The notes under the pieces: generated by a model
Databases searched by the model: none
Seen by the model: the letters and a program-made list of their open reading frames with translations, nothing else
What the model was told of the DNA's origin: nothing
Shown: positions 9,223-58,521 of the stretch, piece by piece
Layout of the letters: every line of letters begins with the position of its first letter
Position numbering within the stretch: position 1 is the first letter of the stretch
Assembly (NCBI GenBank): GCA_041821245.1
Contig: JBGUEP010000001.1
Span: forward strand, 78,854 to 142,853
Source: Prolixibacteraceae bacterium
Lineage (GTDB): Bacteria > Bacteroidota > Bacteroidia > Bacteroidales > Prolixibacteraceae
Length of the DNA stretch: 64,000 nt
Direction: 5' to 3'
Made by a program: the position numbers and the translations under genes

Positions 9223-9267
9223 CAGTTCCATCTATTTTACTAAATTGGTGACTTTGTAAGAAGTATT

Positions 9268-9645
9268 ATGAGCAAATTTTCATTACGTAAACGAATACAA
9301 AGTTTTCGATTCGCCTTTAGAGGAATTGGTCTTGTTCTGCGATATGAACACAACGCCTGGATTCATCTGTTCGCAACTATTGTGGTGATTGGTTTTGGCT
9401 TGTGGTTAAAGATTTCGCGTCCCGAATGGTTATTTCTCATTTTGTGCATAGGGATGGTTTTTATGGCCGAGGGTTTTAATACAGCCATCGAACATTTGTC
9501 GAATGCTGTTACACGAGAAGAAAACAGTTCAATCAAAAAAGCTAAAGATGTGGCTGCCGGAGCAGTATTAATGGCCGCCATTGTTTCTGCTTCAATTGGC
9601 CTACTAATATTTATTCCACATTTACTGCTGAAATTCAATGGCTAA
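9268..9645 (+). CDS. dgkA: Diacylglycerol kinase (prokaryotic DgkA family)
   Basis: 125 aa with three TM helices. SFRFAFRGIGLVLRYEHNAWIH...MVFMAEGFNTAIEHLSN...AKDVAAGAVLMAAIVS matches the DgkA family layout and conserved E/N/D positions. Confidence 0.8.
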   Translation: MSKFSLRKRIQSFRFAFRGIGLVLRYEHNAWIHLFATIVVIGFGLWLKISRPEWLFLILCIGMVFMAEGFNTAIEHLSNAVTREENSSIKKAKDVAAGAVLMAAIVSASIGLLIFIPHLLLKFNG

Positions 9646-9744
9646 GCTTTTATAAAATTAAAAACATGGATATTTTCTCAAGAGACCTTACATTAGTGTT
9701 GGTTTAAGAATCAGTCTTGAACCAATCAATTCGGTAAATAAAAC

Positions 9745-9791
9745 AATGGCAGTAATTTTAAGATTGCTGCCATTTGTTTTTGTACTCTTTT
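9745..9791. terminator. Intrinsic-terminator-like hairpin between the convergent dgkA and small ORF
   Basis: 12 bp stem (aatggcagtaat / attgctgccatt, one G-U wobble) with loop tttaag, followed by tgtttttgtactctttt. Confidence 0.4.
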
Positions 9792-10023
9792 AAACTTTTT
9801 GAAGCTTGTATTCTGCAATAATTTCTTCTACTGTTAGAACACTGTTAGGTAAAATGTTTCCCGGACAAACTCCTGTAGCCTTATGTACCAGATAACGTTT
9901 GCATGTGATATGATTCTCCGAGTCACAGAAAAAATGAATATAAGCTTTACTTGTTAAGGTTTTACCTTTTAAAATTCCATTGTAAATGGGACATTTTTCG
10001 TAATTTGGACACTTATTGCTCAT
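9790..10023 (-). CDS. Small cysteine-rich hypothetical protein (possible zinc-ribbon)
   Basis: 77 aa with Cys at CPNYEKCP...FFCDSENHITC...GVCPG. Sits in a sensible intergenic context, convergent with dgkA and divergent from the amidase. No family recognised. Confidence 0.35.
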   Translation of the reverse strand: MSNKCPNYEKCPIYNGILKGKTLTSKAYIHFFCDSENHITCKRYLVHKATGVCPGNILPNSVLTVEEIIAEYKLQKV

Positions 10024-10135: not shown

Positions 10136-11752
10136 ATGAAACGCAGAAGTTTTTTTAAAACAGCCGCTCTTGGTAGCAGTATTGCAGTGATTTCGCCTTT
10201 GGCTGCCTGCTCTCCGGAGGAAAATCAGACCAATGTTATTTCCTTTGTTGATTTTGATTTAAATGAAATAACTGTTCTTCAGTTGCAGAAAATGATGAAG
10301 AACGAAGAGATCACTTCAGTTAAAATTGTTCAAAAATATTTGAAGCGAATAGCCGAAGTCGACCCGTATTTAAAGGCAATGATTGAAATAAATCCGGATG
10401 CAGAAACTATAGCTGCCCATATGGACGAAGAACGCAGAGCTGGAAAAGTGCGTGGCCCATTGCACGGAATCCCTATTGTGATTAAGGATAACATCGACTC
10501 AGGTGATAAAATGATGACTACAGCCGGATCAATGGCCTTGAATGGTTTTAAGGCGGAAAATGATGCTTTTATCGTTTCCAAACTTCGCGAAGCAGGGGCT
10601 GTTCTCTTAGGTAAAACAAATTTAAGCGAGTGGGCCAACATTCGTTCTACCAATTCAAGTAGTGGTTGGAGCGGGCGAGGTGGTCAGGTTCGCAATCCAT
10701 ATGTATTGGATCGAACTCCCTGCGGATCAAGTGCCGGAACGGGTGCAGCCATAGCTGCTAATTTATGTACCATCGGAATTGGTACCGAAACCGATGGGTC
10801 CATTGTTTGTCCTTCGGGGACCAACGGGATTGTAGGAATTAAACCTACATTGGGAAGTTGGTCACGTCACGGGATCATTCCTATATCTCATAGTCAGGAT
10901 ACCGCAGGACCAATGGCCCGAACCGTTGCCGACGCAGCAATTCTTCTGGGCGCACTTTCGGCACCTCACAATTACGACGAAGCCACCTTGGATTCCAATC
11001 GATTGAATATTACGGACTATACTCAGTTTTTGGATCCTGATGGGTTAAAAGGAAAGAGGATTGGCATTGCCCGTCAGCTTTTTGGATTTAATGCTCAGGT
11101 GGACGAACAGCTCAATAAGTCGCTGGAAATACTAAAAAAACAGGGAGCAGTGCTGGTCGATGATCTTGAATTTAAGGAGCGCAGCGAGTGGAACAATGCC
11201 GAATGGGAAGTGCTGTTATATGAACTCAAAGCCGACCTGAACAACTACCTGGCAGAGCATCCCAATGCACCGGTAAAAACACTCGAAGAAATTATTCAGT
11301 ATAACATTGAGCATGCCGACGTGGAGATGCCCTGGTTTGGACAGGAAATTTTTGTCGAGGCTCAGCAGAAAGGTGATTTGAACGAAGAAGAATACCTTAG
11401 TGCATTAAAAACTTCAAAAGAGTTGAGTCGGAATGCCATAAATAAAACCATGGATGAAAATCAACTTGATGCCATTATAGCTCCGACCAACGGTCCGGCA
11501 TGGACCATCGATTGGGTGAACGGGGATAATTATGGTGGTGGAAGTTCTGATTTTGCTGCCATTTCAGGTTATCCAAATATTACGGTGCCTGCCGGTTATG
11601 TGCATGAAATCCCCCTTGGTCTGTCCTTTTTCGGAAGGGCTTGGAGCGAACCGGTGCTCATTGAAATTGCTTATGCCTATGAACAAGCTTCTAAATTCAG
11701 AAAATCACCGAAGTTCATTTCGTCATTGCTTGCTTATACAGCTGATGAGTAA
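10136..11752 (+). CDS. Amidase (amidase-signature family), secreted/lipoprotein
   Basis: Tat/lipobox-like N-terminus (MKRRSFFKTAALGSSIAVISPLAACS). Amidase-signature region GKTNLSEW...PCGSSAGTGAAIAANLCTIGIGTETDGSIVCPS with the Ser-cisSer-Lys context. Confidence 0.8.
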   Translation: MKRRSFFKTAALGSSIAVISPLAACSPEENQTNVISFVDFDLNEITVLQLQKMMKNEEITSVKIVQKYLKRIAEVDPYLKAMIEINPDAETIAAHMDEERRAGKVRGPLHGIPIVIKDNIDSGDKMMTTAGSMALNGFKAENDAFIVSKLREAGAVLLGKTNLSEWANIRSTNSSSGWSGRGGQVRNPYVLDRTPCGSSAGTGAAIAANLCTIGIGTETDGSIVCPSGTNGIVGIKPTLGSWSRHGIIPISHSQDTAGPMARTVADAAILLGALSAPHNYDEATLDSNRLNITDYTQFLDPDGLKGKRIGIARQLFGFNAQVDEQLNKSLEILKKQGAVLVDDLEFKERSEWNNAEWEVLLYELKADLNNYLAEHPNAPVKTLEEIIQYNIEHADVEMPWFGQEIFVEAQQKGDLNEEEYLSALKTSKELSRNAINKTMDENQLDAIIAPTNGPAWTIDWVNGDNYGGGSSDFAAISGYPNITVPAGYVHEIPLGLSFFGRAWSEPVLIEIAYAYEQASKFRKSPKFISSLLAYTADE

Positions 11753-11899
11753 TAGCGAATAATATTTTTTAAGGCTATAATTTAAACTGCAAGATATGTT
11801 GGTTGAAGTTTTTTATTCGCAGTAGCTCGCTATTCCTTAAAAAAATGCCTTGTATATCAGGTTTTTATTTCAATCTGAATTCGAAAATTTAAATCGAAC

Positions 11900-12295
11900 T
11901 CAGCTTAGTAAGTGAAGGCCTTCGATATTTACTTTACTAAAGGCATTCCAGGTAAGCTCAGTGCAATAAATTTCATTGTTGTTGTGCTGAAAAACTTGAA
12001 AGCCATACTTTAAAAGTATTTCTGAAGACTTTGCAGAAATAAACAATTCATACCCCAATTCCCAGGCAAGCATGGTAGCTTGTTTGATGAATTGTTGTGC
12101 GACTATTTCTTCCTCAATATTGAGGTTCTGAAGAATCGCCACCTTGATTCCTTCAAAAGTATATCCTGCAAATTCAAGCTCATAGTTTGAAGACTCGTTT
12201 TGTAAAATGTATTTCGCTCCTTGATTTTTAAATTGAGACAAACTTTCTTCAACCATTATATTAATGTTGCCGTTATACAATGCTGCATTTTTCAT
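11900..12295 (-). CDS. Hypothetical protein
   Basis: 131-aa ORF in a gap between the amidase and the AraC-family gene. No recognisable motifs. Confidence 0.3.
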   Translation of the reverse strand: MKNAALYNGNINIMVEESLSQFKNQGAKYILQNESSNYELEFAGYTFEGIKVAILQNLNIEEEIVAQQFIKQATMLAWELGYELFISAKSSEILLKYGFQVFQHNNNEIYCTELTWNAFSKVNIEGLHLLS

Positions 12296-45323: not shown

Positions 45324-46046
45324 CTAAAAAGTATCCGTTAAATCAGCAATTTTAAAAAGTTTTTGCGTATCTAAAACTATAATTTTTCGCCCTTTTTTTT
45401 CAATTAAATTTTCCTTTTCAAATGTGCTTAAGATGCGAACAAGGGTTTCAACCGCAATCCCAACAATGTTTGCAAAGTCTTCGCGGGTAAGCACAATTTG
45501 AATCTCATTGTCGTCATTTCTGTTTTGTCTGAAGTTTTCGTTGAGGATGAGTAGCGTAAGTGCCACCCTTTCTCTTACACTTTTTGTGGTAAAGGTAGCG
45601 ATGAAGTTAACCATTACTCCAAATTCATGACTTAGCTTTTTAGTCAGCAGGTTGGATAGTTCTTCGTGTTTATCCAACAATCGATCTAGTTTATCTTTTG
45701 AAACAAAACCGATCAATGAATCGGTAATTGCGGCGGCCGAATCCTGATATTTTTCTTCTCCCAGAAATGCTGCGTATCCAATCATCTCACCTTCGTTACA
45801 CAAATAAATTATTTGTTCCTTTCCTCCATTGAGACTTTTAAATTTTTTTACCTTTCCCTTCTTCACAAAATAAATGCCTAGTGGGTATGCCCCTTCTGTG
45901 AAAATATTTTGCCCCCGCTTAAATTGCTTGGCGATCATCTGGTTTTTGAAATCTAGCTGAACATTTTCAGGTAAGCTTTCAAAATCAAATTCCCGTTTCA
46001 GGTTAAATCGTTCCTTTATTTTATTTAAAAGACTATCCATATTCAA
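45324..46046 (-). CDS. Crp/Fnr-family transcriptional regulator (cNMP-binding domain plus C-terminal HTH)
   Basis: cNMP-binding beta-roll (IFTEGAYPLGIYFVKKGKVKKFKSLNGGKEQIIYLCNEGEMIGY) and HTH (LTREDFANIVGIAVETLVRILSTFEKENLIEKKGRKIIV). No N-terminal Cys cluster, so it is not an FNR-type O2 sensor. Confidence 0.8.
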   Translation of the reverse strand: MNMDSLLNKIKERFNLKREFDFESLPENVQLDFKNQMIAKQFKRGQNIFTEGAYPLGIYFVKKGKVKKFKSLNGGKEQIIYLCNEGEMIGYAAFLGEEKYQDSAAAITDSLIGFVSKDKLDRLLDKHEELSNLLTKKLSHEFGVMVNFIATFTTKSVRERVALTLLILNENFRQNRNDDNEIQIVLTREDFANIVGIAVETLVRILSTFEKENLIEKKGRKIIVLDTQKLFKIADLTDTF

Positions 46047-46072: not shown

Positions 46073-46086
46073 TTGATTTCAATCAA
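46073..46086. promoter_or_regulatory. Perfect FNR/CRP-family-type palindrome TTGAT-N4-ATCAA in the divergent intergenic region
   Basis: ttgatttcaatcaa at 46073..46086. It lies about 27 bp upstream of the Crp/Fnr-family gene start (46046, minus strand) and about 430 bp upstream of the Ehr-like operon. Confidence 0.4.
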
Positions 46087-46516
46087 CTTTATTCCTGATT
46101 TAGATCAAGATTACGATTTCCAAATGAATTACTTTTGTCAATAATTAAGATTATATTTTTTGAATTATTTTATGTCATTTCCGTGTTGTCATTGTTAACT
46201 GTTTTGTTTCTGGTGTTGGGGATTATAGGAATTTTATTTGTTTAGGTAAAGAACAGAGCATTGGTTTCCATTACTGTTGTAACAACAAATGTAATAATTC
46301 CACATAATACATAGATATTTAGGTTGGTAAGTGTTGTTCCGACCATTCGGATACTTCACTATTTGAAATTCTTTTGATAAGAAAATTGCCATCTGAAATT
46401 ACACAAATCTAAGTGCCAGGTCACAATTCGATGATGCCATCAAGGATAAGCAGATTCATTGTTTGGTATGTACTGACACTGAATTAGGTTTAATTATTTA
46501 TGAACTAAAAAAGAGA

Positions 46517-48532
46517 ATGGAAAAACATATTGTTGAAATATTAAATTTGTTGGCCATCTTGTCTTTGGCAATTTTCCCATTTTTGAAGGCACGAAAATTA
46601 GCTTTTACGGCACTTGTTTCAATTATCGTTCAAGTTCTTTTATCGTTCGTTCTGGTTTATCAGGTTTTTACCAATGGAAGCGTCGAATACAGCTATAGCG
46701 GGTCGTTAATCACAGGAAGTATTTCGGTGAAAATTGATTATTTGTCGGCATGGTTCATTCTGGTTATCGTGTTTACCTATTTCACAGGTGCCTGGTATGG
46801 AATACACTACATGAAAAAATACCGTGAACAAACAAGCAACCTAATTTTACATGCCATTGCTTACATATTCGTTTTTATAGGCTTGATTGATATTTGCATT
46901 GTGCAAAACAGCATTGTGTTTCTGGTTGTTTGGGAAATTATGGCTTTTAGTTCATTTATCGTGATCGTTTTTGAACACTATAACAAAGAAACCTTAAAGG
47001 CGGGATTAAATTTTTTGATTCAGTCGCACATCTCCATTCTGTTTTTAACCATCGCATTTATTTGGGCCAAAGTAAAAACAGGTTCTTTTGATTTTTCAGC
47101 CATTTCGGTTTATACCGCACTTCATCCACGCATGGGTTTAGGTTTGTTCGCCTTGTTTTTTATCGGATTTGCAATAAAAGCAGGATTCGTACCTTTTCAT
47201 ACCTGGCTACCCCATGCACACCCTGTTGCTCCTGCCCATATTTCAGGTGTAATGTCGGGAGTGATTATTAAAATCGGAATTTTTGGAATTTTACGAATGC
47301 TCACAATAATCAACGCCAATTATACCATCATTGGAGTTTGCATCCTGATCATTTCAATAGTTACTGGTTTATACGGGGTAATGATGGCCATTGTGCAAAA
47401 TAACCTGAAACGTTTGCTAGCCTATAGTAGTATCGAAAACATTGGGATTATTGGTTTGGGAATTGGGTTGGGTTGTCTCGGAAAAGCATCGAATCATCAA
47501 TGGCTGGTGATTGCCGGATTTGGAGGGGCATTGCTGCACACACTCAACCATTCACTTTTTAAATCGTTACTTTTTTATATTGCCGGAAATGTTTATCAGG
47601 CTACCCACACCTTGAATATTGATTCGTTGGGCGGGTTGCTGAAGAAAATACCACGCACTGCATACCTGTTTCTTATCGGATCGTTGGCTATTTGCGGCTT
47701 TCCGCCTTTCAATGGATTTGTGTCGGAGTTCTATATTTACAATGGATTTTTCAAAGGCCTTCAATCGAACCAGTCGATGTTTAACCTTGCCATGCTTTTT
47801 TCCATTTTTGCCTTGGTGCTTATTGGTGGATTGGCATTAATCACCTTTACCAAAGCTTTTGGTATTGTTTTTTTAGGCAAAAGCCGCGAACCTTTGCATG
47901 TTGATGAAACATTCGATAATCAGGCTGTGGTTTTCCCATTCTATCTCATTGCCTTGGCCATGTTGCTTGTGGGTTTATTTCCGATTCTGTTTTCGTCATC
48001 GCTATTAAAAACAAGTTCTCTTTTTTTCAATACAAGTGATTCATATTCTTTTGTATATCTTGACAAAATGGTAGGTGATATTTCTTCGATTGGATTTTAT
48101 TCAATCGGTTTTATATTGCTGGCGGCTACTTTTTTCGTTTTACGAAAGATGATCACCAGCAAACGACCTTCGCAAACTTATGAAACCTGGGGTTGTGGTT
48201 ATGTTGCCCCAATCCAAAAGGCACAATATTCAGGGAGATCATACACTCGAACTTATAGCCGTCTGTTTGCTCCTATAGTATATGAAGGGAAAGATTTTAA
48301 ACGAATTAAAAAGACAAGTCTTTATCCGAATCATCGTAAATTCTCGACTTACTACGCCGACTTTTGGGAACAATACCTTGTACTTCCGCCTACACGATGG
48401 GTCTCTTTTATTTTGGATAAGTTTCAATTTATTCAAAATGGAAATGTTCAGTCGTATGTGATTTATGGTTTAGCTTTTATTCTTGTGATTGTGATCGTTT
48501 CGATGTTAAGTTCAATTAATCTGGGAGTTTAA
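46517..48532 (+). CDS. Complex-I NuoL / hydrogenase-4 HyfB-like antiporter-type membrane subunit (copy 1)
   Basis: ORF 46463..48532. Start placed at ATG 46517 (MEKHIVEILNLLAIL...) by alignment with the start of paralogue copy 2. WLPHAHPVAPAHISGVMSGVIIKIGIFGILR matches the NuoL/ND5 consensus region ([31 protein letters not shown]). Confidence 0.8.
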   Translation: MEKHIVEILNLLAILSLAIFPFLKARKLAFTALVSIIVQVLLSFVLVYQVFTNGSVEYSYSGSLITGSISVKIDYLSAWFILVIVFTYFTGAWYGIHYMKKYREQTSNLILHAIAYIFVFIGLIDICIVQNSIVFLVVWEIMAFSSFIVIVFEHYNKETLKAGLNFLIQSHISILFLTIAFIWAKVKTGSFDFSAISVYTALHPRMGLGLFALFFIGFAIKAGFVPFHTWLPHAHPVAPAHISGVMSGVIIKIGIFGILRMLTIINANYTIIGVCILIISIVTGLYGVMMAIVQNNLKRLLAYSSIENIGIIGLGIGLGCLGKASNHQWLVIAGFGGALLHTLNHSLFKSLLFYIAGNVYQATHTLNIDSLGGLLKKIPRTAYLFLIGSLAICGFPPFNGFVSEFYIYNGFFKGLQSNQSMFNLAMLFSIFALVLIGGLALITFTKAFGIVFLGKSREPLHVDETFDNQAVVFPFYLIALAMLLVGLFPILFSSSLLKTSSLFFNTSDSYSFVYLDKMVGDISSIGFYSIGFILLAATFFVLRKMITSKRPSQTYETWGCGYVAPIQKAQYSGRSYTRTYSRLFAPIVYEGKDFKRIKKTSLYPNHRKFSTYYADFWEQYLVLPPTRWVSFILDKFQFIQNGNVQSYVIYGLAFILVIVIVSMLSSINLGV

Positions 48533-48535
48533 GTT

Positions 48536-50566
48536 ATGGGAAAAAACCTGATTGAAATAATTAACCTGCTCGCAATCATCACCATTGTGATTTTACCTTT
48601 TTTAAGTACAAAAAAAATGGGCATTGTCACGCTCACGGTAATTTCAGTTCAAGTTGTTTTGGCTTTTGTGGTTGCGTTTTTGGCTTTTTCAGACGGGTTT
48701 ATTTCATTCACATACAAGGGTTCGCTGGCTACCGGCGAAATTCCTATCCGCATTGACTATTTATCGGCATGGTTTATCGGTATTATCAGTTTCACTTTTT
48801 TTACCGGGGCATGGTATGGTTTTCAGTATATGAAAATGTATCGTGATCAACACTCCAATTTAGTTTTACATGCAACTGCATTTATTCTGGCATACACCGC
48901 GCTAATCGACATTTGCATCGTTCAAAATGCTATCGTCTTTTTAGTGATGTGGGAAATAATGACCATTAGTTCGTTTATAACCATCATTTTTGAACACTAT
49001 AAAAAAGAGACCTTAAAGGCTGGGATCAATTTTTTCATTCAATCGCATGTGGCCATTCTTTTTCTCACCATCGCCTTTATTTGGGTGAAAGTAAAAACCG
49101 GATCATTCGACTTTGCAGAAATATCAAAGCTCACAGCCATGCATCCTGCAATGGGAATCGGATTGTTTGTCTTTTTCTTTATTGGATTTGCCATCAAAGC
49201 CGGATTTGTTCCTTTTCATACCTGGCTCCCATTGGCCCACCCGGTAGCACCTGCCCATATCTCAGGAATCATGTCGGGCGTTATCATAAAAATTGGCATT
49301 TTTGGCATTCTGCGTATGATTGTTTTGATCAAAACCGATTACATGACCATTGGTTACTTCATTTTAATTGTTTCGGTAATTACCGGAGTGTACGGGGTTT
49401 CGCTGGCCATTATTCAACACAATCTGAAACGTTTACTAGCCTACCACAGCATCGAAAATATAGGGATCATTGGCATTGGCATTGGTCTGGGATGTCTGGG
49501 CATTGGGATGGAAAATCAGTTATTGCTTATGGCTGGATTTGGCGGGGCGCTGCTACACACCTTGAACCACTCACTTTTTAAATCGCTGTTGTTTTATAGT
49601 GCCGGAAATGTTTATCAGGCAACTCACACCTTAAATATTGAATCGTTGGGAGGACTAATCAAAAAGATTCCACAATCGACCTATCTGTTTTTGATTGGAG
49701 CTTTGGCCATTTGTGGTTTGCCTCCTTTTAATGGTTTTGTTTCCGAATTTCTGATTTACAATGGCTTGTTCAAAGGATTGTTGTCGAATCATTTTATGTT
49801 TATACTGGTGATGCTTTTTTCCATTTTAGCCATGGTTTTAATCGGAGGCCTTGCCCTTATTTGTTTTACCAAGGCTTTTGGAATAGTGTTTTTAGGCAAA
49901 GCCCGAAAAGAATTGCCATCGGATAAAATCATTGAAAAACCCTTACAAGTTGGCTCCTTATACTTAATTGCTTATGCGATAACCGTGATTGGGGTATTGC
50001 CGATTTTATTCACTTCGCCCCTAAGTAAAGCAGCACATCTTTTTCAAAAAAATCCAGACCTGTTTCTTGCTGATGGTCTCACCCAAAACCTAACTATTTT
50101 GACTCTTATCGGTTTGTATTCTTTGGGCTTTGTGGCACTTACAGTACTGGCTTTGTATATCCGACGATTGATTATAAAACGCCGATCGGTTTTAACTGAC
50201 GCTACCTGGGGTTGTGCCTATGTGGGTGATGGAAAAAATATGCAGTACACCGCTTCATCTTTCATCCGTACTTTCAGGAAACTGGCTGAGCCGCTGTTTT
50301 TAATTAAAAAAACAAAAACAGTGGCAACCGGCCTTTACCCAACAACCATAAAACAAAGCACACACCCCTACGACAGATTGGAGTCGGCTTTGATTGACAA
50401 ACCAATTTATTTTTTCAGAAAGGTGTTGAACCGCTTTGTTTTTTTGCAGAATGGTAACATTCAAGCCTACATTCTTTACGGATTTATTTTTATTTCAACG
50501 GCCATAATTTTGCCAATACTAATTTCTAAGTTCATGGTATTTATTCACTTCTTAAATCAATTGTAA
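48536..50566 (+). CDS. Complex-I NuoL / HyfB-like antiporter-type membrane subunit (copy 2, tandem paralogue)
   Basis: Roughly 70 percent identical to copy 1 along its full length (e.g. YLSAWFIGIISFTFFTGAWYGFQYMKMYRDQHSNLVLHA vs YLSAWFILVIVFTYFTGAWYGIHYMKKYREQTSNLILHA). Starts 3 bp after copy 1 ends. Confidence 0.8.
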   Translation: MGKNLIEIINLLAIITIVILPFLSTKKMGIVTLTVISVQVVLAFVVAFLAFSDGFISFTYKGSLATGEIPIRIDYLSAWFIGIISFTFFTGAWYGFQYMKMYRDQHSNLVLHATAFILAYTALIDICIVQNAIVFLVMWEIMTISSFITIIFEHYKKETLKAGINFFIQSHVAILFLTIAFIWVKVKTGSFDFAEISKLTAMHPAMGIGLFVFFFIGFAIKAGFVPFHTWLPLAHPVAPAHISGIMSGVIIKIGIFGILRMIVLIKTDYMTIGYFILIVSVITGVYGVSLAIIQHNLKRLLAYHSIENIGIIGIGIGLGCLGIGMENQLLLMAGFGGALLHTLNHSLFKSLLFYSAGNVYQATHTLNIESLGGLIKKIPQSTYLFLIGALAICGLPPFNGFVSEFLIYNGLFKGLLSNHFMFILVMLFSILAMVLIGGLALICFTKAFGIVFLGKARKELPSDKIIEKPLQVGSLYLIAYAITVIGVLPILFTSPLSKAAHLFQKNPDLFLADGLTQNLTILTLIGLYSLGFVALTVLALYIRRLIIKRRSVLTDATWGCAYVGDGKNMQYTASSFIRTFRKLAEPLFLIKKTKTVATGLYPTTIKQSTHPYDRLESALIDKPIYFFRKVLNRFVFLQNGNIQAYILYGFIFISTAIILPILISKFMVFIHFLNQL

Positions 50567-50567
50567 T

Positions 50568-51473
50568 ATGCTTAGCTTTTTACTCATCATATTGTCGAGC
50601 TTTGTTTTTATGGGCATTGTTGTTCGCACCAAAAGCTTGTCATCGGGACGAAAAGGACCAGGTATATTTCAACCTATGAAAGATATTTTCAGACTTTGGA
50701 AAAAAGGATCGGTAATCAGCACCACAACAAGCCTGATCTTTCAAATTGCCCCAACCATTTATTTTGCTTCTATTGTAATGGCCATTTTAATGATCCCTCA
50801 TGGAAAATTACCGGGAATTATTTCATTCGACGGCGATTTTGTAATGTTTGCCTATGTACTTGCCATTGGGAAATTTATGATGATTGTTTCGGCACTCGAT
50901 ACGGGAAGCAGCTTTGAAGGGATGGGAGCGAGCCGCGAGGCACTTTTCTCCATGTTGGTTGAACCTGCGTTTTTTATCATCATGGGATCGTTTGCGCTTT
51001 TCACCGGCCATACTTCATTTTACGAGATATTCAGTACGCTCAATTACGGACCTTACATTTCGTACCTGATTGGCGGCCTGGCCACTTTTGTGATCATACT
51101 AATTGCCATGGTCGAAAATAGCCGAATGCCCGTTGACGATCCGAAGACCCACCTGGAGCTTACCATGGTTCACGAAGTAATGATTTTGGACAATAGCGGT
51201 TTCGATTTGGGTTTGATCATGTATGCCACTCCCCTAAAATTTGCCATGTATGGCGCACTGATCTCAAACTTTTTTATTGGCGAAATCCCAATTCTGATAT
51301 CGATTCCAATGTTTTTCGGGATTCAATTTGTAATTGCTGTTTTCGTTGGCTTACTTGAATCGTTTATGGCACGGTTCAGGATGAACCACAACCCTCAGTT
51401 TATATTTATTCTAACTTCGGTATCGCTGCTTATCTTTTTCGGAGTGTTACTGGTATTGGGTAAATTCATTTAA
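50568..51473 (+). CDS. NuoH / HycD / HyfC-like membrane subunit
   Basis: IVVRTKSLSSGRKGPGIFQPMKDIFRLWKKGSV matches the NuoH N-terminal ERK...R.GPN..G..G.LQP.AD..K consensus. Eight predicted TM helices. Confidence 0.8.
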   Translation: MLSFLLIILSSFVFMGIVVRTKSLSSGRKGPGIFQPMKDIFRLWKKGSVISTTTSLIFQIAPTIYFASIVMAILMIPHGKLPGIISFDGDFVMFAYVLAIGKFMMIVSALDTGSSFEGMGASREALFSMLVEPAFFIIMGSFALFTGHTSFYEIFSTLNYGPYISYLIGGLATFVIILIAMVENSRMPVDDPKTHLELTMVHEVMILDNSGFDLGLIMYATPLKFAMYGALISNFFIGEIPILISIPMFFGIQFVIAVFVGLLESFMARFRMNHNPQFIFILTSVSLLIFFGVLLVLGKFI

Positions 51474-51484
51474 ATTATACGACT

Positions 51485-52114
51485 ATGACTGATATCTTGC
51501 TGATAACATTTACCATAACGCTACTCTTTATGAGTATTGCCAACCGGATTTATACCTACCTGAATATTCTGATTTTTCAGGGGATAATCCTTTTTGGCGC
51601 CACCTATCTTTCATTGACCGAAATTAACACGGCCAATCTGATATTCATCATGATTGAAACCATTGTGGTAAAAGCCATTGCTGTGCCCATGTTTATGAAA
51701 TACATCATTAAACGAAATAAAATCACCAGAGAAACAGAACCCTTTCTGCCCAACTTCATTTCGTTGATTATTGTAACCGCGATCATCATCATTACAATTA
51801 TTTTATCAAGTGCTGTTAGCGATGTAAATCTCGATAAGACTTATTTTGTTGTCGCTTTATCGAACCTTTTTACGGGTTTGTATTTAATTGTTTCACGTAA
51901 AAAAATCATTGTCCATGTTATCGGATATCTGGTTATTGAAAATGGAGTTTTTGTATTGGCACTTGCCGTTGGTAACGAAATGCCGATGCTGGTAAACATG
52001 GGAATTATGCTCGATATTTTTGCCAGTGTGTTAATTCTTGGGATCTTCTTCAATAAAATTGGCGATTATTTGAATAACCCTGATGTAACTCTTCTAAGCA
52101 ATCTAAAAGATTAA
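51485..52114 (+). CDS. HyfE-like (NuoK-related) small membrane subunit
   Basis: 209 aa, all hydrophobic helices. The C-terminal GYLVIENGVFVLALAVGNEMPMLVNMGIMLDIFASVLILGIF resembles the NuoK/HyfE conserved E-N-G region. Confidence 0.5.
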   Translation: MTDILLITFTITLLFMSIANRIYTYLNILIFQGIILFGATYLSLTEINTANLIFIMIETIVVKAIAVPMFMKYIIKRNKITRETEPFLPNFISLIIVTAIIIITIILSSAVSDVNLDKTYFVVALSNLFTGLYLIVSRKKIIVHVIGYLVIENGVFVLALAVGNEMPMLVNMGIMLDIFASVLILGIFFNKIGDYLNNPDVTLLSNLKD

Positions 52115-52118
52115 TAAT

Positions 52119-53543
52119 ATGATTGGTATTTTTTTAATAGGAACAATTGTCATTTCGGCCTGGCTGTTTTTTAACAAAAACAGAATTGTCAACTACTCTT
52201 TACTTGTGGGCTATACGATTCTACTTTGGGCATTGGGATTTTACGAGTACAATCATATTAACCTCATCGAACTTAGATTCTTTAAACCTGATGCTTTAGG
52301 AATTTTACTTCTTTTTGCCATGTGTATTGTTAGCATTCCCGCCTTTTACCATGGTTACAGGTATATTGTTACGCACGATGAAACGCCTCACACCCGAGGA
52401 TTGTTCTTTGCCGCGATGGTATTGTTGATGTCGGCCTGCAGTATGGCATACCTGTCAAACCACATTGCAGTTACCTGGATTTTTGTTGAAATTACAACAC
52501 TTAGTGCATCGGCACTAATCTACCATCACCGCAACATTAGGGCACTCGAAGGAGTTTGGAAATATGTTTTTATTTGTGCGCTCAGTATCACTTTTATCTA
52601 CATTGGCATTCTGTTTTTGAGTTTATCGATGAAACAAGCGGGTATCGAAGGCATGTCGTTCGATTCAATTCTTCAAAATGTGGAAAAGCTTGATTTGTTT
52701 TGGTTGAAACTCGCCTTCCTTTTCATTTTCACCGGATTTACAGCAAAAATTGGTTTGGTACCCATGTATACTGCGGGTGTCGATGCCAAGGATAAAGCCC
52801 CGGCTCCGGCAGGTGCATTGCTCTCAAGTGTTTTAATGAACATGGGATTTGTGGGTATTTACAGGGTGTATGCAATTCTTACCCACACTGAGTTACAACA
52901 TTGGGCATCAGTTATTATGATTATATCTGGCCTGTTATCAGTATTCGTAGCAACGGTTTACATGACCCATATCAAAAACATCAAACGCATGTTCGCCTAT
53001 TCGAGCATCGAACACATGGGATTAGTGATGTTGGGCCTAGCCGTTGGTGGAATTGGTGTTTATGCCGCCATTTTACATCTCATTCTTCATACTTTTGTAA
53101 AATCCAGTTTATTTTTTCAATACAATCAAATTTTTCTGGTTTATAAAAGCAAAAGCATCTACGATTCAGGTCATTACTTTAAATACAACAAGATTGGTGC
53201 TATTGTAATCTTGTTGGCCTTTATTTCGGCCACGGCTATGCCTCCATCAGGTTTGTTCGTCTCCGAATTTTTAATTTTTCAGGCCCTGTTCGAAGCTCAT
53301 TACATTGTTATTCTAATTGCACTTTTAATCCTATTGACCATGATTATCTGGGGATTTGGAACAAATATTTTCAAATTACTTTTTACGCCTCCATTGAAAC
53401 TAGATGAAACCACTATTCCTAAGATAAATCCTTGGAATTCGTTCTCTCAATTTGCATTGTTGGCATTGTCGGTTTATTTAGCCTATAGCCCGCCACCAGT
53501 ATTTGTGCAACTGATTCAGGATGCTGTAACCCTTGTTCAATAA
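52119..53543 (+). CDS. NuoN/NuoM / HyfF-like antiporter-type membrane subunit
   Basis: 474 aa with about 14 TM helices and a proton-pumping-subunit core (FTAKIGLVPMYTAGVDAKDKAPAPAGALLSSVLMNMGFVGIYR). Confidence 0.7.
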   Translation: MIGIFLIGTIVISAWLFFNKNRIVNYSLLVGYTILLWALGFYEYNHINLIELRFFKPDALGILLLFAMCIVSIPAFYHGYRYIVTHDETPHTRGLFFAAMVLLMSACSMAYLSNHIAVTWIFVEITTLSASALIYHHRNIRALEGVWKYVFICALSITFIYIGILFLSLSMKQAGIEGMSFDSILQNVEKLDLFWLKLAFLFIFTGFTAKIGLVPMYTAGVDAKDKAPAPAGALLSSVLMNMGFVGIYRVYAILTHTELQHWASVIMIISGLLSVFVATVYMTHIKNIKRMFAYSSIEHMGLVMLGLAVGGIGVYAAILHLILHTFVKSSLFFQYNQIFLVYKSKSIYDSGHYFKYNKIGAIVILLAFISATAMPPSGLFVSEFLIFQALFEAHYIVILIALLILLTMIIWGFGTNIFKLLFTPPLKLDETTIPKINPWNSFSQFALLALSVYLAYSPPPVFVQLIQDAVTLVQ

Positions 53544-53549
53544 AACGAT

Positions 53550-55052
53550 ATGAATACCATAAAACTACATAACAATCAGACGGTTAATTTGAAGGACATT
53601 CCCGAACTGAACTATCAAGAGTTCATGAATACGAACCTTGAATTACTGGCTAATAATCCCGAAAGGCATTGTGTTAACTATTTTGGTGTTGACGATGAAA
53701 ACTGCCTGACACTCTACTGTTGTATTGCCGACGATGCAACGCACGAAATTTATGTTTCATGTTCTGTTTTGAAAGGAAAAACTGAATACCCATCGTTTTC
53801 GGCTCAGAATCATAATTTTGAAAAGTTTGAAAGGGAAATCCACGAAAACTTTGGAATTGCATATACCGATCATCCCTGGTTAAAACCTTTCAGGTACAGC
53901 CACAATCGATTCGATTCAGGAAAAACCATTCGCAACTATCCGTTTTATGGGGTTGAAAGTGATGAATTGCATGAAGTAGGTGTTGGTCCGATTCATGCAG
54001 GGATTATCGAACCCGGGCATTTCCGTTTTATTTGTAACGGAGAACAAATCATGCACCTCGAAATTCAACTGGGCTATCAGCACCGGGGCATTGAACAACT
54101 GTTTCTGCAAAAAACAAAAATATTAGAGCGCGCTACACTTGCCGAAAATATAACAGGTGATACCACGGTTGGACATTCTACCGCGTTCGCAAATCTTTGG
54201 GAAAGCTTGAGTGATTACACAGCCGATCCTTCCTTGCAATTTTCGCGTACCCTTGCTCTCGAATTGGAACGTATTGCCATACATACCGGAGATATGGCAG
54301 GTGTATGTGCCGACATTGCTTACCAATTGGGCAACTCGGTTTATGGGCGCTTGCGAACCCCAATCGTTAACTTTTTCCAGGAATGGGGAGGCAATCGTTT
54401 GGCCAAAGGCTTAATCAGGCCCGGCAAAATAAACTACCCCTTTTCACCCGAATTAGGAAATCGGCTCATTGAAATTTTTAAAGCTTACGAGCCCGACTTT
54501 AACGAAATGACCCATAAGTTCTTTTCCCTTCCCAGCGCTTTGTCGCGTATGGAAAGGACAGGAATTGTAACTTACGACGAGGCACTTGAAATCGGTGCTG
54601 TGGGCATGGCTGCCCGTGCAAGTGGATTAAACAGAGATATTAGATCATCCCATCCGCACAATTTATACAATCAGACAATTACTCATGAACCCGAAATTAA
54701 ACATCATGGTGATGTGTATTCCAGGGTGCGGATTAGAAGGGAAGAAATTGTACAGTCTGTTTCCTATTGTAAAAAGCTGATAGAATCTATCCCTGAATTT
54801 GATTCGCCCAAAAATATTCCATTTAAACCTGGCAGTGACAAATTCACTATTGCATTGGTTGAAGGCTGGCGAGGCGAAATTTGTCATTGTGCCATTACCG
54901 ATGCTGAAGGAAAGTTGAAAATCTATAAAATTAAAGATCCATCGCATCACAATTGGATGGCTTTAGCTCAATCGGTAAGGAACAACGAAATTTCTGATTT
55001 CCCAATCTGTAACAAGAGTTTTAACCTATCATACAGTGGTCACGATTTATAA
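53550..55052 (+). CDS. NuoC-NuoD fusion / HycE-like large subunit homologue lacking all four Ni-Fe-binding cysteines
   Basis: N-terminal NuoC-like part (FEREIHENFGIAYTDHPWLKP), then the NuoD/[NiFe]-large-subunit core (GVGPIHAGIIEPGHFRF...GYQHRGIEQ). The N-terminal RxCGxCxxxH site reads ITGDTTVGHSTAF (both Cys replaced by Thr). The C-terminal DPCxxCxxH site reads DPSHHNWMA (Cys replaced by Ser and Asn). Confidence 0.8.
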   Translation: MNTIKLHNNQTVNLKDIPELNYQEFMNTNLELLANNPERHCVNYFGVDDENCLTLYCCIADDATHEIYVSCSVLKGKTEYPSFSAQNHNFEKFEREIHENFGIAYTDHPWLKPFRYSHNRFDSGKTIRNYPFYGVESDELHEVGVGPIHAGIIEPGHFRFICNGEQIMHLEIQLGYQHRGIEQLFLQKTKILERATLAENITGDTTVGHSTAFANLWESLSDYTADPSLQFSRTLALELERIAIHTGDMAGVCADIAYQLGNSVYGRLRTPIVNFFQEWGGNRLAKGLIRPGKINYPFSPELGNRLIEIFKAYEPDFNEMTHKFFSLPSALSRMERTGIVTYDEALEIGAVGMAARASGLNRDIRSSHPHNLYNQTITHEPEIKHHGDVYSRVRIRREEIVQSVSYCKKLIESIPEFDSPKNIPFKPGSDKFTIALVEGWRGEICHCAITDAEGKLKIYKIKDPSHHNWMALAQSVRNNEISDFPICNKSFNLSYSGHDL

Positions 55053-55067
55053 AAAAGGAAGATTGAA

Positions 55068-55829
55068 ATGTTAGATAATCTAAAAATATTATGGCATCAG
55101 GGGAAACAGTTTATTCCAGATGTTACCACCGCAAAAGTACCAGGCATCTTTAGAGGACGACCAATCATAACTAAAAATCAAGTGAATGAAGAGCTGCTGG
55201 TTGACTTATGTCCAACAAAAGCCATTTCAAGAAACCCATTGTGCATCGATTTGGGCAAGTGCACTTTTTGCGGCGAATGTGCGGTGCAATTTCCAGATAA
55301 GATTTCATTTACCAAGGATTATAAATTATCAACAAATATAAGGGAACGCTTAATAATTCATGAAGTTGAAGATGCGCCAATTATGGTTGATCCAACGCTT
55401 GTTCGAAAAGAAATTCATCGTTTGTTTGGACGTTCGCTTAAGTTGAGGCAGGTTTCAGCAGGTGGCGATAACAGTACTGAATGGGAATTGAACGCATCGA
55501 ATAATGTTCAGTTCGACATAAGCCGCTTTGGGATCGATTTTGTAGCCTCGCCTCGCCATGCCGATGGAGTTGTAATTACAGGCCCCATTACCTCAAACAT
55601 GGCCGAGTCCCTCGAACGATGCTACCATGCCATTCCCGAGCCTAAAATCATCATCCTTGCCGGTACTGATGCCATCAGCGGAGGTATTTTTGCCGACAGC
55701 CCGGCAATCGACCGGAGCTTTTTAACGAAATACCCAATCGACTTATATATTGCAGGTAACCCTGTTCATCCTTTAACATTTATCAATGGTGTATTAAATT
55801 TAACACGAACCAAATCTACCAGAAGATGA
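55068..55829 (+). CDS. Fusion of a ferredoxin-like (NuoI/HycF-related) domain with a NuoB / hydrogenase-small-subunit-like domain that lacks all four N2-cluster cysteines
   Basis: N-terminal DLCPTKAI...CIDLGKCTFCGECAVQFP has one possible 4Fe-4S site. The C-terminal part aligns to NuoB (SPRHADGVVITGPIT...EPKIIILAGTDAISGGIF...LYIAGNPVHP vs SPRQADLMVVAGT...EPKWVISMGACANSGG...VYIPGCPPRPE). The cluster cysteines are replaced: CC to N/S, C to T, C to N. Confidence 0.7.
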   Translation: MLDNLKILWHQGKQFIPDVTTAKVPGIFRGRPIITKNQVNEELLVDLCPTKAISRNPLCIDLGKCTFCGECAVQFPDKISFTKDYKLSTNIRERLIIHEVEDAPIMVDPTLVRKEIHRLFGRSLKLRQVSAGGDNSTEWELNASNNVQFDISRFGIDFVASPRHADGVVITGPITSNMAESLERCYHAIPEPKIIILAGTDAISGGIFADSPAIDRSFLTKYPIDLYIAGNPVHPLTFINGVLNLTRTKSTRR

Positions 55830-56245
55830 AGAATTTACGATTTGCTTTTGCCATAGGAGATGATAATCTAATTGCTGAAACGAAATTTAGTGATGCTTCT
55901 ATGATCCGAATTTACGAGTATCTTTTTACTGAAAAATGTTTGAATTTTATTTCAGAAGAGATAAATCCTGTTTTTGAAATAAAAGATCATGATGAAAAAG
56001 TCAGCATTTTGATTGATTTCCTCAGCAGCAATAATATTGATTTGCTTGTCGCAAAAAAATATGGAATAATGATAGAAGTTGAAAATAAATATTTTGTTCC
56101 AATAGTTGTTTCAAATTCATCACCCCAAAGAGTGGTCGAATTAATCACAAAACAAATCAACTGGCTTTATGATGAACTTGAATTAGAAAAAAAAGAACAC
56201 ATGATTATTCGAATTGACAAAGGTGTTTTTAAGTATAAATTATAA
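55826..56245 (+). CDS. Small hypothetical protein, possibly a NifX/NifB-like (Nitro_FeMo-Co family) cofactor-binding fold; translationally coupled to the preceding gene
   Basis: The ATGA start/stop overlap with 55068..55829 indicates coupling. MKNLRFAFAIGDDNLIAETKFSDASMIRIYEY resembles the MKIAIP..DG..S.HFG.A..F.IYE start of NifX-like proteins. The similarity is weak. Confidence 0.3.
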   Translation: MKNLRFAFAIGDDNLIAETKFSDASMIRIYEYLFTEKCLNFISEEINPVFEIKDHDEKVSILIDFLSSNNIDLLVAKKYGIMIEVENKYFVPIVVSNSSPQRVVELITKQINWLYDELELEKKEHMIIRIDKGVFKYKL

Positions 56246-56248
56246 GAA

Positions 56249-57238
56249 ATGAATAAAATAAATGCTGCAATTACAGGAATCGAATCCTACTTGCCCGAGT
56301 ATATTTTAACCAACGAAGAATTAAGCCAAATGGTTGATACCTCTGATGAGTGGATCATGCAACGAGTTGGAATTAAGGAAAGACGGATTCTTAAGGGCGA
56401 TGGTTTGGCCACCTCGGATATGGGTGCCGCGGCGACTAAAAAATTATTGGCTAAAACGGGTACAAAACCAGAAGAAATTGATTTTGTAATAGTGGCAACA
56501 GCAACGCCCGACATGTCTTTCCCTTCTACTGCTTGTCTCATAGCTGAAAAATCAGGTATAAAAAACTCCTGGGGCTTTGATTTGAGTGCAGCTTGTTCCA
56601 GTTTTTTGTTTGCACTTGAAACTGCCAGTCATTTTATTGAATCAGGAAAATATAAAAAAATTCTGTTGGTTGCTGCCGATAAAATGTCATCGATTACAGA
56701 TTATACAAATAGAAATACTTGCGTTTTGTTTGGCGATGCAGCTGTAGCTATGCTAATTGAACCTACAACGGAAGAAGTTGGCGTAATGGATTCCCTCTTG
56801 CAAATTGATGGTATTGGGAAAGACTTCCTTTATATGAAAGCGGGAGGATCATTGAAACCTGCTTCCCATGAAACGGTTGATGCAAAAGAGCATTTTATGT
56901 ATCAGGATGGAAAAGCCGTATTTAAAGTGGCTGTATCTAAAATGTCTGATGTTTCGGTAGAAATAATGAGGCGAAATGAATTAAAGCCTGAAGACCTGGC
57001 CTGGTTTATTCCTCATCAGGCAAATTTAAGGATCATTGACGCTGTTGGTCGTCGTATGGGCATGACTGCAGATAAAGTGATGATAAACATTGAAAAATAT
57101 GGAAATACAACCAATGCTACAATTCCATTATGCCTTTGGGAACTTGAGCATAAATTAAAGAAAGGTGATAATCTAATTTTATCTGCTTTTGGAGGAGGAT
57201 ATACGTGGGGATCGATCTATTTGAAATGGGCTTATTAA
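56249..57238 (+). CDS. fabH: 3-oxoacyl-ACP synthase III (KAS III)
   Basis: Cys-His-Asn triad context: [27 protein letters not shown]. Starts 4 bp after the previous gene. Confidence 0.9.
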
Positions 57239-57267
57239 TTAAGAAAAGATCTTTAAAAACAAACGAT

Positions 57268-58521
57268 ATGAAACTAAAAAGAGTTGTTATTACAGGATTA
57301 GGAGCTTTAACTCCCATTGGAAATAATGTTAATGATTTCTGGAAGAATCTTATTCAGGGTAAAAGTGGTATTGCCGAGATTACAAAATTTGATGCCTCTC
57401 CTTTTAAAACAAAATTTGCCGGAGAATTAAAAGGCTTCGATCCTTTGCTATTTATGGAAAAAGCACAAGCCCGCAAGATGGACTCCTATTCACAATATGC
57501 CGTTGCGGTTGTTGATGAATGCATCAAAGATTCAAATATTGATTTAAAAAATACCGATCTCAGCAAAGTTGGTGTAATATGGGGTACTGGTATTGGTGGC
57601 ATCGAAACTTTCGAAAAGGAGATTATTGAATATGGAGCAAATTTAGATTCCCCTCGTTTCAGTCCTTTTTTTGCTACTAAAATGATTTCGAATATGGCTG
57701 CCGGTAATATTTCAATTCATTATGGTTTTCGTGGAGTCAGTTATGTTACTGCATCAGCCTGTGCTTCAAGCAACAATGCAATTATCAATGCATATAATAA
57801 TATACAACTAGGTAAAGCTAATGTTATTTTTGCCGGAGGTTCTGAAGCAAGCATTACCCCTGCTGGAATTGGAGGGTTTAGTTCGATGAAAGCAATTTCG
57901 CAACGCAACGAATCCCCCGAAACAGCTTCTCGTCCCTTTGATGTTTCACGCGATGGTTTTGTATTGGCTGAAGGTGCCGGTGTAATTATGCTTGAGGAAC
58001 TGGAGCACGCTAAAAACAGGGGAGCAAAAATATATGGCGAAATTGCAGGTGGCGGCTGTGCTTCTGATGCCTACCATATTGCTGCACCTCATCCCGAAGG
58101 CATTGGTGCCGTGGCGGCAATGACCGAAGCCATTAACGAAGCCGGTTTGTTGCCCGAAGATGTCGACTATGTAAGTACGCACGGCACGGCTACTCCTATT
58201 GGCGACTTAAGCGAATGTAAAGCTATCGTAACCGTTTTCGAAAACTCGCTCGATAAATTACACATTAGTGCAACAAAATCAATGACCGGACACTTATTGG
58301 GTGCTGCCGGGGCAATTGAAGCAATTGCTTGTATAAAATCCATAAACACTGGAATCGTACCTCCAACCAGCAATCTCAATGAAATTGATCCTGCCATTGA
58401 TAAACGAATTAACTTAACGCCAAATGTAGCAGTAACGAAAACGGTGAATGTGGCTTTAAACAACACATTTGGTTTTGGTGGACATATTTTTGTTTCGCTT
58501 TTTAAGAAATACAAAGAATAG
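57268..58521 (+). CDS. fabF: 3-oxoacyl-ACP synthase II (KAS II)
   Basis: ORF 57205..58521. The likely start is ATG 57268 (MKLKRVVITGLGALTPIGN). Cys-His-His triad: SACASS, VSTHGTATPIGD, SMTGHLLGAAG. Confidence 0.9.
   Translation: MKLKRVVITGLGALTPIGNNVNDFWKNLIQGKSGIAEITKFDASPFKTKFAGELKGFDPLLFMEKAQARKMDSYSQYAVAVVDECIKDSNIDLKNTDLSKVGVIWGTGIGGIETFEKEIIEYGANLDSPRFSPFFATKMISNMAAGNISIHYGFRGVSYVTASACASSNNAIINAYNNIQLGKANVIFAGGSEASITPAGIGGFSSMKAISQRNESPETASRPFDVSRDGFVLAEGAGVIMLEELEHAKNRGAKIYGEIAGGGCASDAYHIAAPHPEGIGAVAAMTEAINEAGLLPEDVDYVSTHGTATPIGDLSECKAIVTVFENSLDKLHISATKSMTGHLLGAAGAIEAIACIKSINTGIVPPTSNLNEIDPAIDKRINLTPNVAVTKTVNVALNNTFGFGGHIFVSLFKKYKE

Follow-up and report, generated by a model that had tools for sequence, protein, structure and literature searches.

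Predicted loss of the proximal and distal iron-sulfur clusters in a conserved clade of Ehr complexes from Bacteroidota

We analyzed a 64,000-nucleotide stretch of DNA from a Prolixibacteraceae bacterium (assembly GCA_041821245.1, contig JBGUEP010000001.1, positions 78,854 to 142,853; hereafter the window). It carries a set of seven tightly packed genes on the + strand, ehrA1-A2-B-C-D-L-S, for what its sequences identify as an energy-converting-hydrogenase-related (Ehr) complex, a Hyf/Mbh-type relative of complex I. The last gene, ehrS (55068..55829, + strand), starts with ATG 15 bp downstream of ehrL and encodes a protein of 253 amino acids, in which a remnant of the NuoI/HycF ferredoxin is fused to a NuoB/HycG-like small subunit according to Pfam, NCBIfam and phmmer matches and a Foldseek search with an AlphaFold2 (AF2) model. 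Judging from residue conservation and alignments, three centres are gone from the peripheral arm formed by EhrL and EhrS (the NiFe site, the proximal [4Fe-4S] cluster and the distal ferredoxin cluster), and a single four-cysteine cluster is left. The Ehr family and its NuoI-NuoB fusion are already known, and the cluster-less clade to which the window belongs is a conserved variant. With its electron relay cut, the complex may function as a redox-independent, Mrp-like translocator of ions or protons, or as a gated one, a reading that we hold with about even confidence.

EhrS and its cluster sites

By sequence and by fold, the C-terminal half of EhrS is a flavodoxin-like domain of the NuoB/[NiFe]-hydrogenase small subunit superfamily. 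The Pfam model Oxidored_q6 (PF01058) matches residues 138-244 with an E-value of 2.6e-19 and a score of 69.6 bits (cutoff 27), covering model positions 5-127 of 128, and phmmer aligns the protein with MbhJ (6cfw_J, 1.9e-21), HycG (7z0s_G, 3.6e-18) and dozens of NDUFS7/NuoB chains. The AF2 model of EhrS has a predicted local distance difference test score (pLDDT) of 85 and a predicted template modelling score (pTM) of 0.84; Foldseek superimposes it on 6cfw_J with a target-normalised TM-score of 0.82 and a root-mean-square deviation of 1.9 A over 129 columns. The alignments to MbhJ and HycG place the NuoB/MbhJ-like domain at residues 116-247 (55413..55808, + strand). An earlier note on this DNA, made from its letters alone, had described the C-terminal domain as NuoB-like, and the Pfam match, the phmmer alignments to PDB chains and the Foldseek match of the model all bear this out. 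The curated NuoB models of NCBIfam, however, all score far below their cutoffs on EhrS (for example, 84 vs 116 bits), and the protein is of the hydrogenase type (HyfH+HyfI-like) and not of the Nuo type.

In the MbhJ/HycG register (CxxC...C...C), the ligand positions of the proximal [4Fe-4S] cluster correspond to D134 (55467-55469), T137 (55476-55478), D201 (55668-55670) and N231 (55758-55760), all on the + strand and with codons verified. The four cysteines of a proximal or N2 site are absent, and the whole protein has only six cysteines, at positions 48, 59, 65, 68, 71 and 185. In the tandem-CC register of NuoB-type proteins, which we set ourselves against Thermus Nqo6 and not by a tool alignment, S136 and T137 would stand at this place. 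The earlier note was right that every cluster cysteine is replaced, while the identities that it gave (N, S, T and N) were partly wrong: the third ligand position, read there as Thr (T200), falls on D201 in the alignment. The distinction between D201 and T200 matters, because the two aspartates are the informative feature of the site.

We compared the window protein with a close set of 120 database relatives of EhrS (76-90% identity), which come from Prolixibacteraceae, Labilibaculum, Mariniphaga, Mangrovibacterium and other Bacteroidales. Each of the 121 sequences (76-100% identity) has D134, D201 and N231. At position 137, 117 of them have Cys, and the window protein and one of the 120 relatives have Thr. 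The former cluster site has not decayed: invariant residues rebuild it, and strong purifying selection acts on it.

One [4Fe-4S] site is retained in the N-terminal part of EhrS (55209..55280, + strand). It consists of C48, from the CP of motif 1, and of C65-x2-C68-x2-C71 in motif 2, a combination delimited by conservation: C48 with its proline, C65, C68 and C71 are invariant in the 120 close relatives and are kept in nearly all family members, and C59 is unconserved. In the 2x[4Fe-4S] ferredoxin fold, the CP cysteine of motif 1 joins the first three cysteines of motif 2 in one cluster. Since residues 1-47 of EhrS contain no Cys and F75 takes the place of the fourth Cys of motif 2, a second ferredoxin cluster cannot form. 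EhrS therefore has one of the two sites of the two-cluster ferredoxins (2x CxxCxxCxxxCP; NuoI, HycF, HyfH). The NuoI models of NCBIfam match at residues 58-98, the counterpart of the second NuoI motif, and the Pfam Fer4 model stays below its cutoff. The single ferredoxin-type site that the earlier note had allowed for is supported by this cysteine census and by the relatives, and can be sharpened to C48/C65/C68/C71.

A cluster census of 120 full-length relatives found 27 proteins with three clusters, 22 with the motif-2 and the proximal cluster, 60 with the motif-2 cluster only, and six with both ferredoxin clusters and no proximal one; almost none were without the motif-2 cluster. The retained cluster is most likely the medial, N6b-like one, because in the two-cluster proteins a wire needs the retained ferredoxin cluster to sit beside the proximal site. 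The N6b ligands of Thermus Nqo9 (C63, C98, C101 and C104) agree with this assignment.

Distribution and conservation of the cluster-less EhrS

A locus scan with one genome per species yielded 80 loci. Those related loci that span the upstream region have their genes in the order ehrA(A)BCDLS, and a few loci have ehrS with no ehr genes beside it. At the four proximal ligand positions, the pattern D-x-D-N (where x is C, A, S, V, G, T or H) was found in about 50 Bacteroidota genomes, including Bacteroidales, Flavobacteriales, Saprospiraceae and Roseivirgaceae, and a subgroup of Alistipes/Rikenellaceae has D-[IV]-[ED]-A. The four cysteines (C-C-C-C) are kept in Melainabacteria/Gastranaerophilales, Ignavibacteria, Myxococcota, Acidobacteriota, Planctomycetota, Spirochaetota and a few Bacteroidota. 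In a midpoint-rooted neighbour-joining tree of EhrS+EhrL, the Cys-less Bacteroidota are monophyletic and the window is sister to Labilibaculum. Four Bacteroidota loci with CCCC Ehr (L060, L064, L067 and L069) group with Ignavibacteria, Aminicenantes and Spirochaetota. Their position outside the Cys-less Bacteroidota clade suggests either that Ehr was transferred laterally or that this phylum has two ancient types of it.

Loss of the proximal ligands is not confined to this clade. One locus from Isosphaeraceae (Planctomycetota; L074) combines D-S-D-N with two retained ferredoxin clusters; because it nests among CCCC sequences, it represents an independent loss of the proximal cluster that converged on the same residues. 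A third cluster-less lineage (L083; GCA_964616005.1, 4958-12720) has D-V-D-S and a more divergent EhrL; the gene order of its operon is a different one, DUF190(PII-like)-B-C-D-L-S-A, and a Usp gene comes next. Among 1.84 billion cluster representatives we found the further patterns DIDD, DVDS (the pattern of L083), DDDS, DEDS, ECED, DSSD, DAAD, SEGD and NEGD. Altogether, 24 of the 25 distinct Cys-less patterns contain at least two acidic residues: D or E occupies position 1 in 21 patterns and position 3 in 21, and position 2 is unconstrained. Since independent lineages recurrently put two carboxylates in place of the N2 ligands, we infer that the Asp/Asp pair mimics the charge and packing of the cluster.

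EhrS is also the most conserved subunit of the complex. Its mean identity to the window protein is 63.8%, and it ranks first in 21 of 29 loci; the corresponding means for the other subunits are 61.3% (EhrB), 56.4% (EhrL), 54.5% (EhrC), 50.9% (EhrD) and 47.9% (EhrA2). These data bear on the idea that the operon is a degenerate remnant of a hydrogenase operon, or a product of sequencing or assembly errors, for which the disappearance of the classical cofactor ligands except those of one cluster could be cited. We regard this as having a negligible chance of being true, given that the seven open reading frames are all intact, that the 120 close relatives have the same residues, that the same operon occurs in about 50 species-level genomes of Bacteroidota, and that the transport residues are intact in addition to the high conservation of EhrS. 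An artefact or a pseudogene is rejected on the conservation data, and the Cys-less state is real. The earlier note had also left a choice between an ion translocator and a scaffold, neither transferring electrons. The first part has support from the sequences; a scaffold or relic is disfavoured, because EhrS is the best-conserved subunit and its site is rebuilt and not decayed.

Three stand-alone ehrS-like genes (L022, 6066-6815; L026, 9974-10729; L032, 3709-4392) are 60-62% identical to the window ehrS and have the patterns D-A-D-N or D-C-D-N. No other ehr gene was found in the 3.7-10 kb upstream of them (3.7 kb for L032) or downstream, and the neighbours in L022 and L026 are the housekeeping genes pyrD, lepA, metG, L25 and prs. 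These genomes may have a split operon, or else EhrS may have a role apart from the complex as well.

The large subunit EhrL

EhrL (53550..55052, + strand) is a NuoC+NuoD/HycE-like large subunit that matches PF00329 and PF00346 and is aligned by phmmer with HycE, MbhL and Nqo4. The alignment with HycE, with codons checked, puts T202, T205, S494 and G497 at the positions of the NiFe ligands, and these positions are non-canonical in all 73 related loci from which EhrL was recovered. In the alignment with Nqo4, H38 corresponds to I153 and Y87 to G203, so the His and Tyr of the complex I quinone site are absent. No CxxC-type motif was found in EhrL; together with the single site of EhrS this agrees with the claim of the earlier note that the soluble arm has at most one FeS site.

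Other features of the subunit are retained. The beta1-beta2 loop GPIHAGIIEPGHFRF aligns with GPLHVTSDEPGHFRL of HycE, and EhrL keeps H149 and E154 in this loop as well as R441, the counterparts of HycE H188, E193 and R478. K286 aligns with Nqo4 H170, which adjoins His169, the redox-Bohr group of N2. The structure paper on formate hydrogenlyase (FHL) refers to the same histidine (PMC9474812). Of the 45 Cys-less operons, 43 have Lys at position 286; among the 29 CCCC operons, 27 have Arg there. We considered K286 as a newly gained charge that offsets the new aspartates, and rejected this, as the Arg of cluster-containing Ehr indicates that a basic residue at this position is ancestral.

The motifs VGPxHAGxIEPGxFRFxCxGE, GD (at the former L1 motif), ExWRGE and DPSxxNW are common to the Cys-less and CCCC clades, and in both of them a C-terminal NKSxxLSYxGxDL replaces DPCxxC. 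Two cysteines lie within or next to such motifs: C162 (54033-54035) in FRFxCxGE, conserved in all Ehr clades and Val in HycE, and C445 (54882-54884) in WRGExCH, conserved only in the Cys-less clade.

In all Ehr clades, conservation at and around the former NiFe ligand positions is far above the EhrL average. This observation, and the retention of the proton-delivery residues H149, E154 and R441, would fit a non-redox reaction in the polar EhrL pocket, proton-coupled and linked to ion translocation. Vectorial interconversion of CO2 and bicarbonate is one example, with precedents in the cyanobacterial NDH-1MS/CupA system and in DabAB, and in Labilibaculum a gene for malic enzyme, a CO2-releasing decarboxylase, lies between ehrL and ehrS. 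That insertion, however, is seen in one lineage only, no carbonic-anhydrase-like metal triad or domain was identified, and the flanking open reading frames of 82 loci include no conserved partner enzyme. Being speculation with no candidate substrate, such catalysis seems to us rather improbable.

Another possibility is that the complex is still a redox enzyme, in which electrons would pass from ferredoxin or flavodoxin to the [4Fe-4S] cluster, then to a non-cysteinyl metal centre, a cofactor or a substrate held by D134, D201 and N231 where N2 used to be, and finally to the EhrL site. The retention of the four-Cys cluster in nearly all family members is as expected for such a route, the invariance of the three residues and the convergence of independent lineages on them are what a metal site would produce, and the pocket motifs of EhrL are as conserved as in cluster-containing Ehr. 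We nevertheless consider it unlikely. Position 137 varies freely (C, A, S, V, G, T, H or I), the Alistipes subclade with D-[IV]-[ED]-A would be left with only two possible ligands, and the quinone-site residues are absent. Conserved genes for electron donors or acceptors were not found near ehr in the 82 loci. We also know of no [4Fe-4S] cluster that is ligated solely by carboxylates and an amide.

Membrane subunits

The five upstream genes, all on the + strand, encode the membrane subunits, whose best NCBIfam matches are HyfB, HyfE and HyfF models; all seven ehr genes are matched by Pfam and NCBIfam models. EhrA1 (46463..48532) and EhrA2 (48536..50566) are HyfB/NuoL-like antiporter-like subunits, the former identified by PF00361 and by the NCBIfam model 'hydrogenase 4 subunit B' (464 bits), the latter by phmmer alignments to HycC (7z0s_C) and MbhH (6cfw_H). 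They are tandem duplicates with 59% identity. For EhrA1, the ATG at 46517 is likelier as the start than the listed TTG at 46463, because the resulting N-terminus parallels that of EhrA2. Many more distant operons show a single ehrA in the available stretch, where some loci are cut upstream. EhrB (50568..51473) is a NuoH/HycD-like membrane anchor (PF00146; alignment to HycD 7z0s_D), EhrC (51485..52114) is a HyfE-like membrane subunit (NCBIfam 'hydrogenase 4 membrane subunit', 3e-17; weak PF00420), and EhrD (52119..53543) is a HyfF/NuoN-like antiporter-like subunit (PF00361; NCBIfam HyfF models).

To map transport residues we used the proton-path residues named for FHL (PMC9474812). EhrB keeps Y96, K102, E124, E132, E183, E197 and E203, which correspond to Y102, R108, E130, E138, E189, E203 and E206 of HycD; the first four were codon-checked and the last three were read from the protein sequence. 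The charged and polar residues of EhrA2 include E140, K221, H235, S243, K252, H341, H345, K349 and E404 (codons checked), among which E140, H235, K252, H341, H345, K349 and E404 correspond to E135, H222, K239, H328, H332, K336 and E391 of HycC. EhrA2 also has the canonical Lys of transmembrane helix 7, K221, which HycC is without, and its PDB matches include MrpA and MrpD.

Comparison with known complexes

The Ehr identity follows from the gene set and order, which equal those published for ehrABCDLS (PMC6688271, PMC7894505). The defining trait of the family is a group-4-hydrogenase-like large subunit without the NiFe cysteines (PMC6349859, PMC10284858, PMC4378227), and fusions of NuoC with NuoD and of NuoI with NuoB have been described for many Ehr (PMC6349859, Supplementary Note 4). 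We found all of these traits in the window: the gene set and its order, the large subunit without NiFe cysteines, and both fusions. As in known Ehr, there are two NuoL/HyfB-like EhrA subunits, a NuoH-like EhrB, a HyfE-like EhrC, a HyfF-like EhrD and fused EhrL and EhrS. Ehr of the other phyla examined (Melainabacteria, Myxococcota, Acidobacteriota, Ignavibacteria and others), in contrast, have four proximal cysteines and often both ferredoxin clusters, whereas the Bacteroidota clade has D-x-D/E-N/A and one cluster. The function of Ehr is reported as unknown (PMC6349859, PMC7894505, PMC10284858, PMC4378227).

Our literature search found no structure of an Ehr complex. In the Ehr literature that it covered, which did not extend to the founding papers, we found no description of a clade-wide loss of the proximal and distal clusters or of the recurrent Asp/Asp, nor, within the same bounds, of a cluster-less EhrS as the best-conserved subunit. 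Those founding papers are said to be Coppi 2005 and Marreiros et al. 2013, and the family was reportedly first named in Geobacter sulfurreducens.

FHL (PDB 7Z0S) is similar in several respects: its HycG is the top Foldseek match of EhrS as well as a strong phmmer match (see above), and the two systems have in common the CxxC...C...C spacing of the ligand positions, the SPRHAD motif, the HycE-like beta1-beta2 loop (GPxHxxxxEPGHFR) and the HycD-like E-channel. The FHL relay comprises the NiFe site, the proximal cluster G1 and two HycF clusters, spaced at most 14 A apart (PMC9474812). Three of these four centres are missing from the window complex, and HycF and HycG are separate proteins in FHL. 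Unlike FHL, no input module of the HycB/FdhF type is encoded nearby. The membrane-bound hydrogenase (MBH) of Pyrococcus furiosus (6CFW) provides the closest solved small subunit, MbhJ, and its MbhH resembles the antiporter-like subunit of the window complex, but it is a ferredoxin-driven hydrogenase with three clusters and a NiFe site, and we identified no counterparts of its Mrp-type subunits MbhA-G among the seven ehr genes. A group 4 [NiFe] hydrogenase is ruled out, because the cysteines of L1 (RxCGxCxxxH) and L2 (DPCxxCxxH/R) are absent, although Hyf-like membrane subunits and a hydrogenase-type loop are present.

With the Q-module of complex I the window complex shares the same folds and junction architecture and the SPR(H/Q)AD, GG and P-x-x-P motifs. 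Complex I itself is ruled out, as there is no tandem CC with N2, no quinone-site His38/Tyr87 and no NuoEFG, NuoA or NuoJ. Mrp antiporters resemble it in their NuoL/M/N-like subunits with Lys/Glu/His chains, and redox-independent exchange is proposed here only by analogy with them. They have no NuoH-like subunit and no peripheral arm, and they contain MrpB, MrpE, MrpF and MrpG, none of which has an identified counterpart among the seven ehr genes. The NuoH-like EhrB and the EhrL/EhrS peripheral arm rule out membership in the Mrp family.

Proposed mechanism

Ion translocation without electron transfer is the most economical account of these data, because the relay is lost and the residues of the ion and proton channels are intact. 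The retained cluster would lie about two cluster spacings from the former active site, and this distance from the large-subunit pocket appears too great for an electron wire to reach it. Two carboxylates would stand in for the charge of about -2 of the lost [Fe4S4(Cys)4] cluster, opposite EhrL K286. D134, D201 and possibly N231, together with K286, would maintain the fold and the electrostatics of the junction where EhrS, EhrL and EhrB meet. Proton handling would be preserved through the beta1-beta2 loop (H149/E154), the canopy residue R441, the E-channel of EhrB and the Lys/Glu/His chains of the antiporter-like subunits. A gradient that already exists might then drive translocation, or protonation or ligand events at the junction might gate it, and the remaining cluster may have a structural, regulatory or redox-sensing part.

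A bolder and, to us, doubtful extension would see the Bacteroidota-type Ehr, perhaps all Ehr, as a 'redox-free complex I' with a junction, an E-channel and three antiporter-like subunits but no electron-transfer chain. An Asp/Asp(/Asn) charge centre would take the place of N2 and face a conserved Lys/Arg of EhrL, and protonation or cation binding at this centre, instead of redox chemistry, would then drive or gate ion translocation.

Several points weigh against translocation without electron transfer. The distances from the cluster to the former site and the pocket are estimates from homology and from the N6b ligands of Thermus Nqo9. The near-universal retention of one four-Cys [4Fe-4S] cluster hints at some remaining redox role. 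A hard metal ion (Fe, Mn, Ca or Na) could be held by the two Asp and the Asn, and the strongly conserved polar motifs at the former NiFe site (GD; NKSxxLSYxGxDL) could mark a catalytic site and not just a coupling element. Finally, the ancestral function of Ehr was probably redox-linked, because cluster-containing relatives exist.

Gene neighbourhood and regulation

A gene for a Crp/Fnr-family regulator (45324..46046, - strand) lies divergently upstream of ehrA1. It is recognised by the Pfam cNMP-binding and HTH_Crp_2 domains and is without the N-terminal Cys cluster of the FNR type. The region between this gene and ehrA1 contains two FNR/CRP-type boxes (46073..46108, + strand): a perfect one, TTGATTTCAATCAA, at 46073-46086, and CTGATTTAGATCAA at 46095-46108, with one mismatch, 22 bp downstream. 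The former is the sole perfect TTGAT-N4-ATCAA in the window. A perfect box upstream of ehrA1 was also found in L082 (identical sequence) and in Labilibaculum antarcticum (L001; TTGATTCAAATCAA); L003 contains a perfect box as well, at a position not mapped relative to its ehr genes. The divergent regulator gene likewise stands upstream of ehrA1 in L003 and L082. The placement of these boxes suggests that the regulator controls the ehr operon. When the flanking open reading frames of the 82 loci were clustered, this regulator was the sole conserved neighbour besides the ehr genes, and in close relatives only; no partner genes, such as those for formate dehydrogenase, NuoEF or carbonic anhydrase, were conserved beside ehr.

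Downstream, an open reading frame of 139 amino acids (55826..56245, + strand) has a 4-bp overlap with the ehrS stop and reaches to 3 bp before fabH. It matches no Pfam or NCBIfam family (Pfam at E<=10 gives noise only) and was not found in any of the 82 related loci, and it does not belong to the conserved ehr unit. FabH and FabF follow at 56249-58521 with no detectable terminators between them and the ehr operon. Scanning for terminators and promoters gave no more matches than the shuffle expectation and is uninformative on where the operon ends, and an Rfam scan of the window found no RNA families. In Labilibaculum antarcticum, a FabH remnant and FabF come after ehrS, and the gene between ehrL and ehrS encodes a malic enzyme of 420 amino acids (the region noted in this locus is 8733-9995 and 10771-12207). 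From the links with FabH, FabF and malic enzyme one might suspect co-expression with lipogenesis, NADPH supply or CO2 metabolism. We rejected the product of the 139-codon frame, FabH/FabF and malic enzyme as parts of the complex, because these genes are lineage-specific.

Conclusions

Current annotations of these proteins as 'NADH:ubiquinone oxidoreductase' or 'Ni,Fe-hydrogenase III small subunit' are unsupported by the sequence, because the NiFe, N2 and quinone-site residues are absent. A large conserved clade, which includes the abundant human-gut Alistipes, has lost the proximal and distal clusters, yet it keeps the pocket, the E-channel and the antiporter modules, and we argue from this that the function of the junction may be independent of an electron wire.

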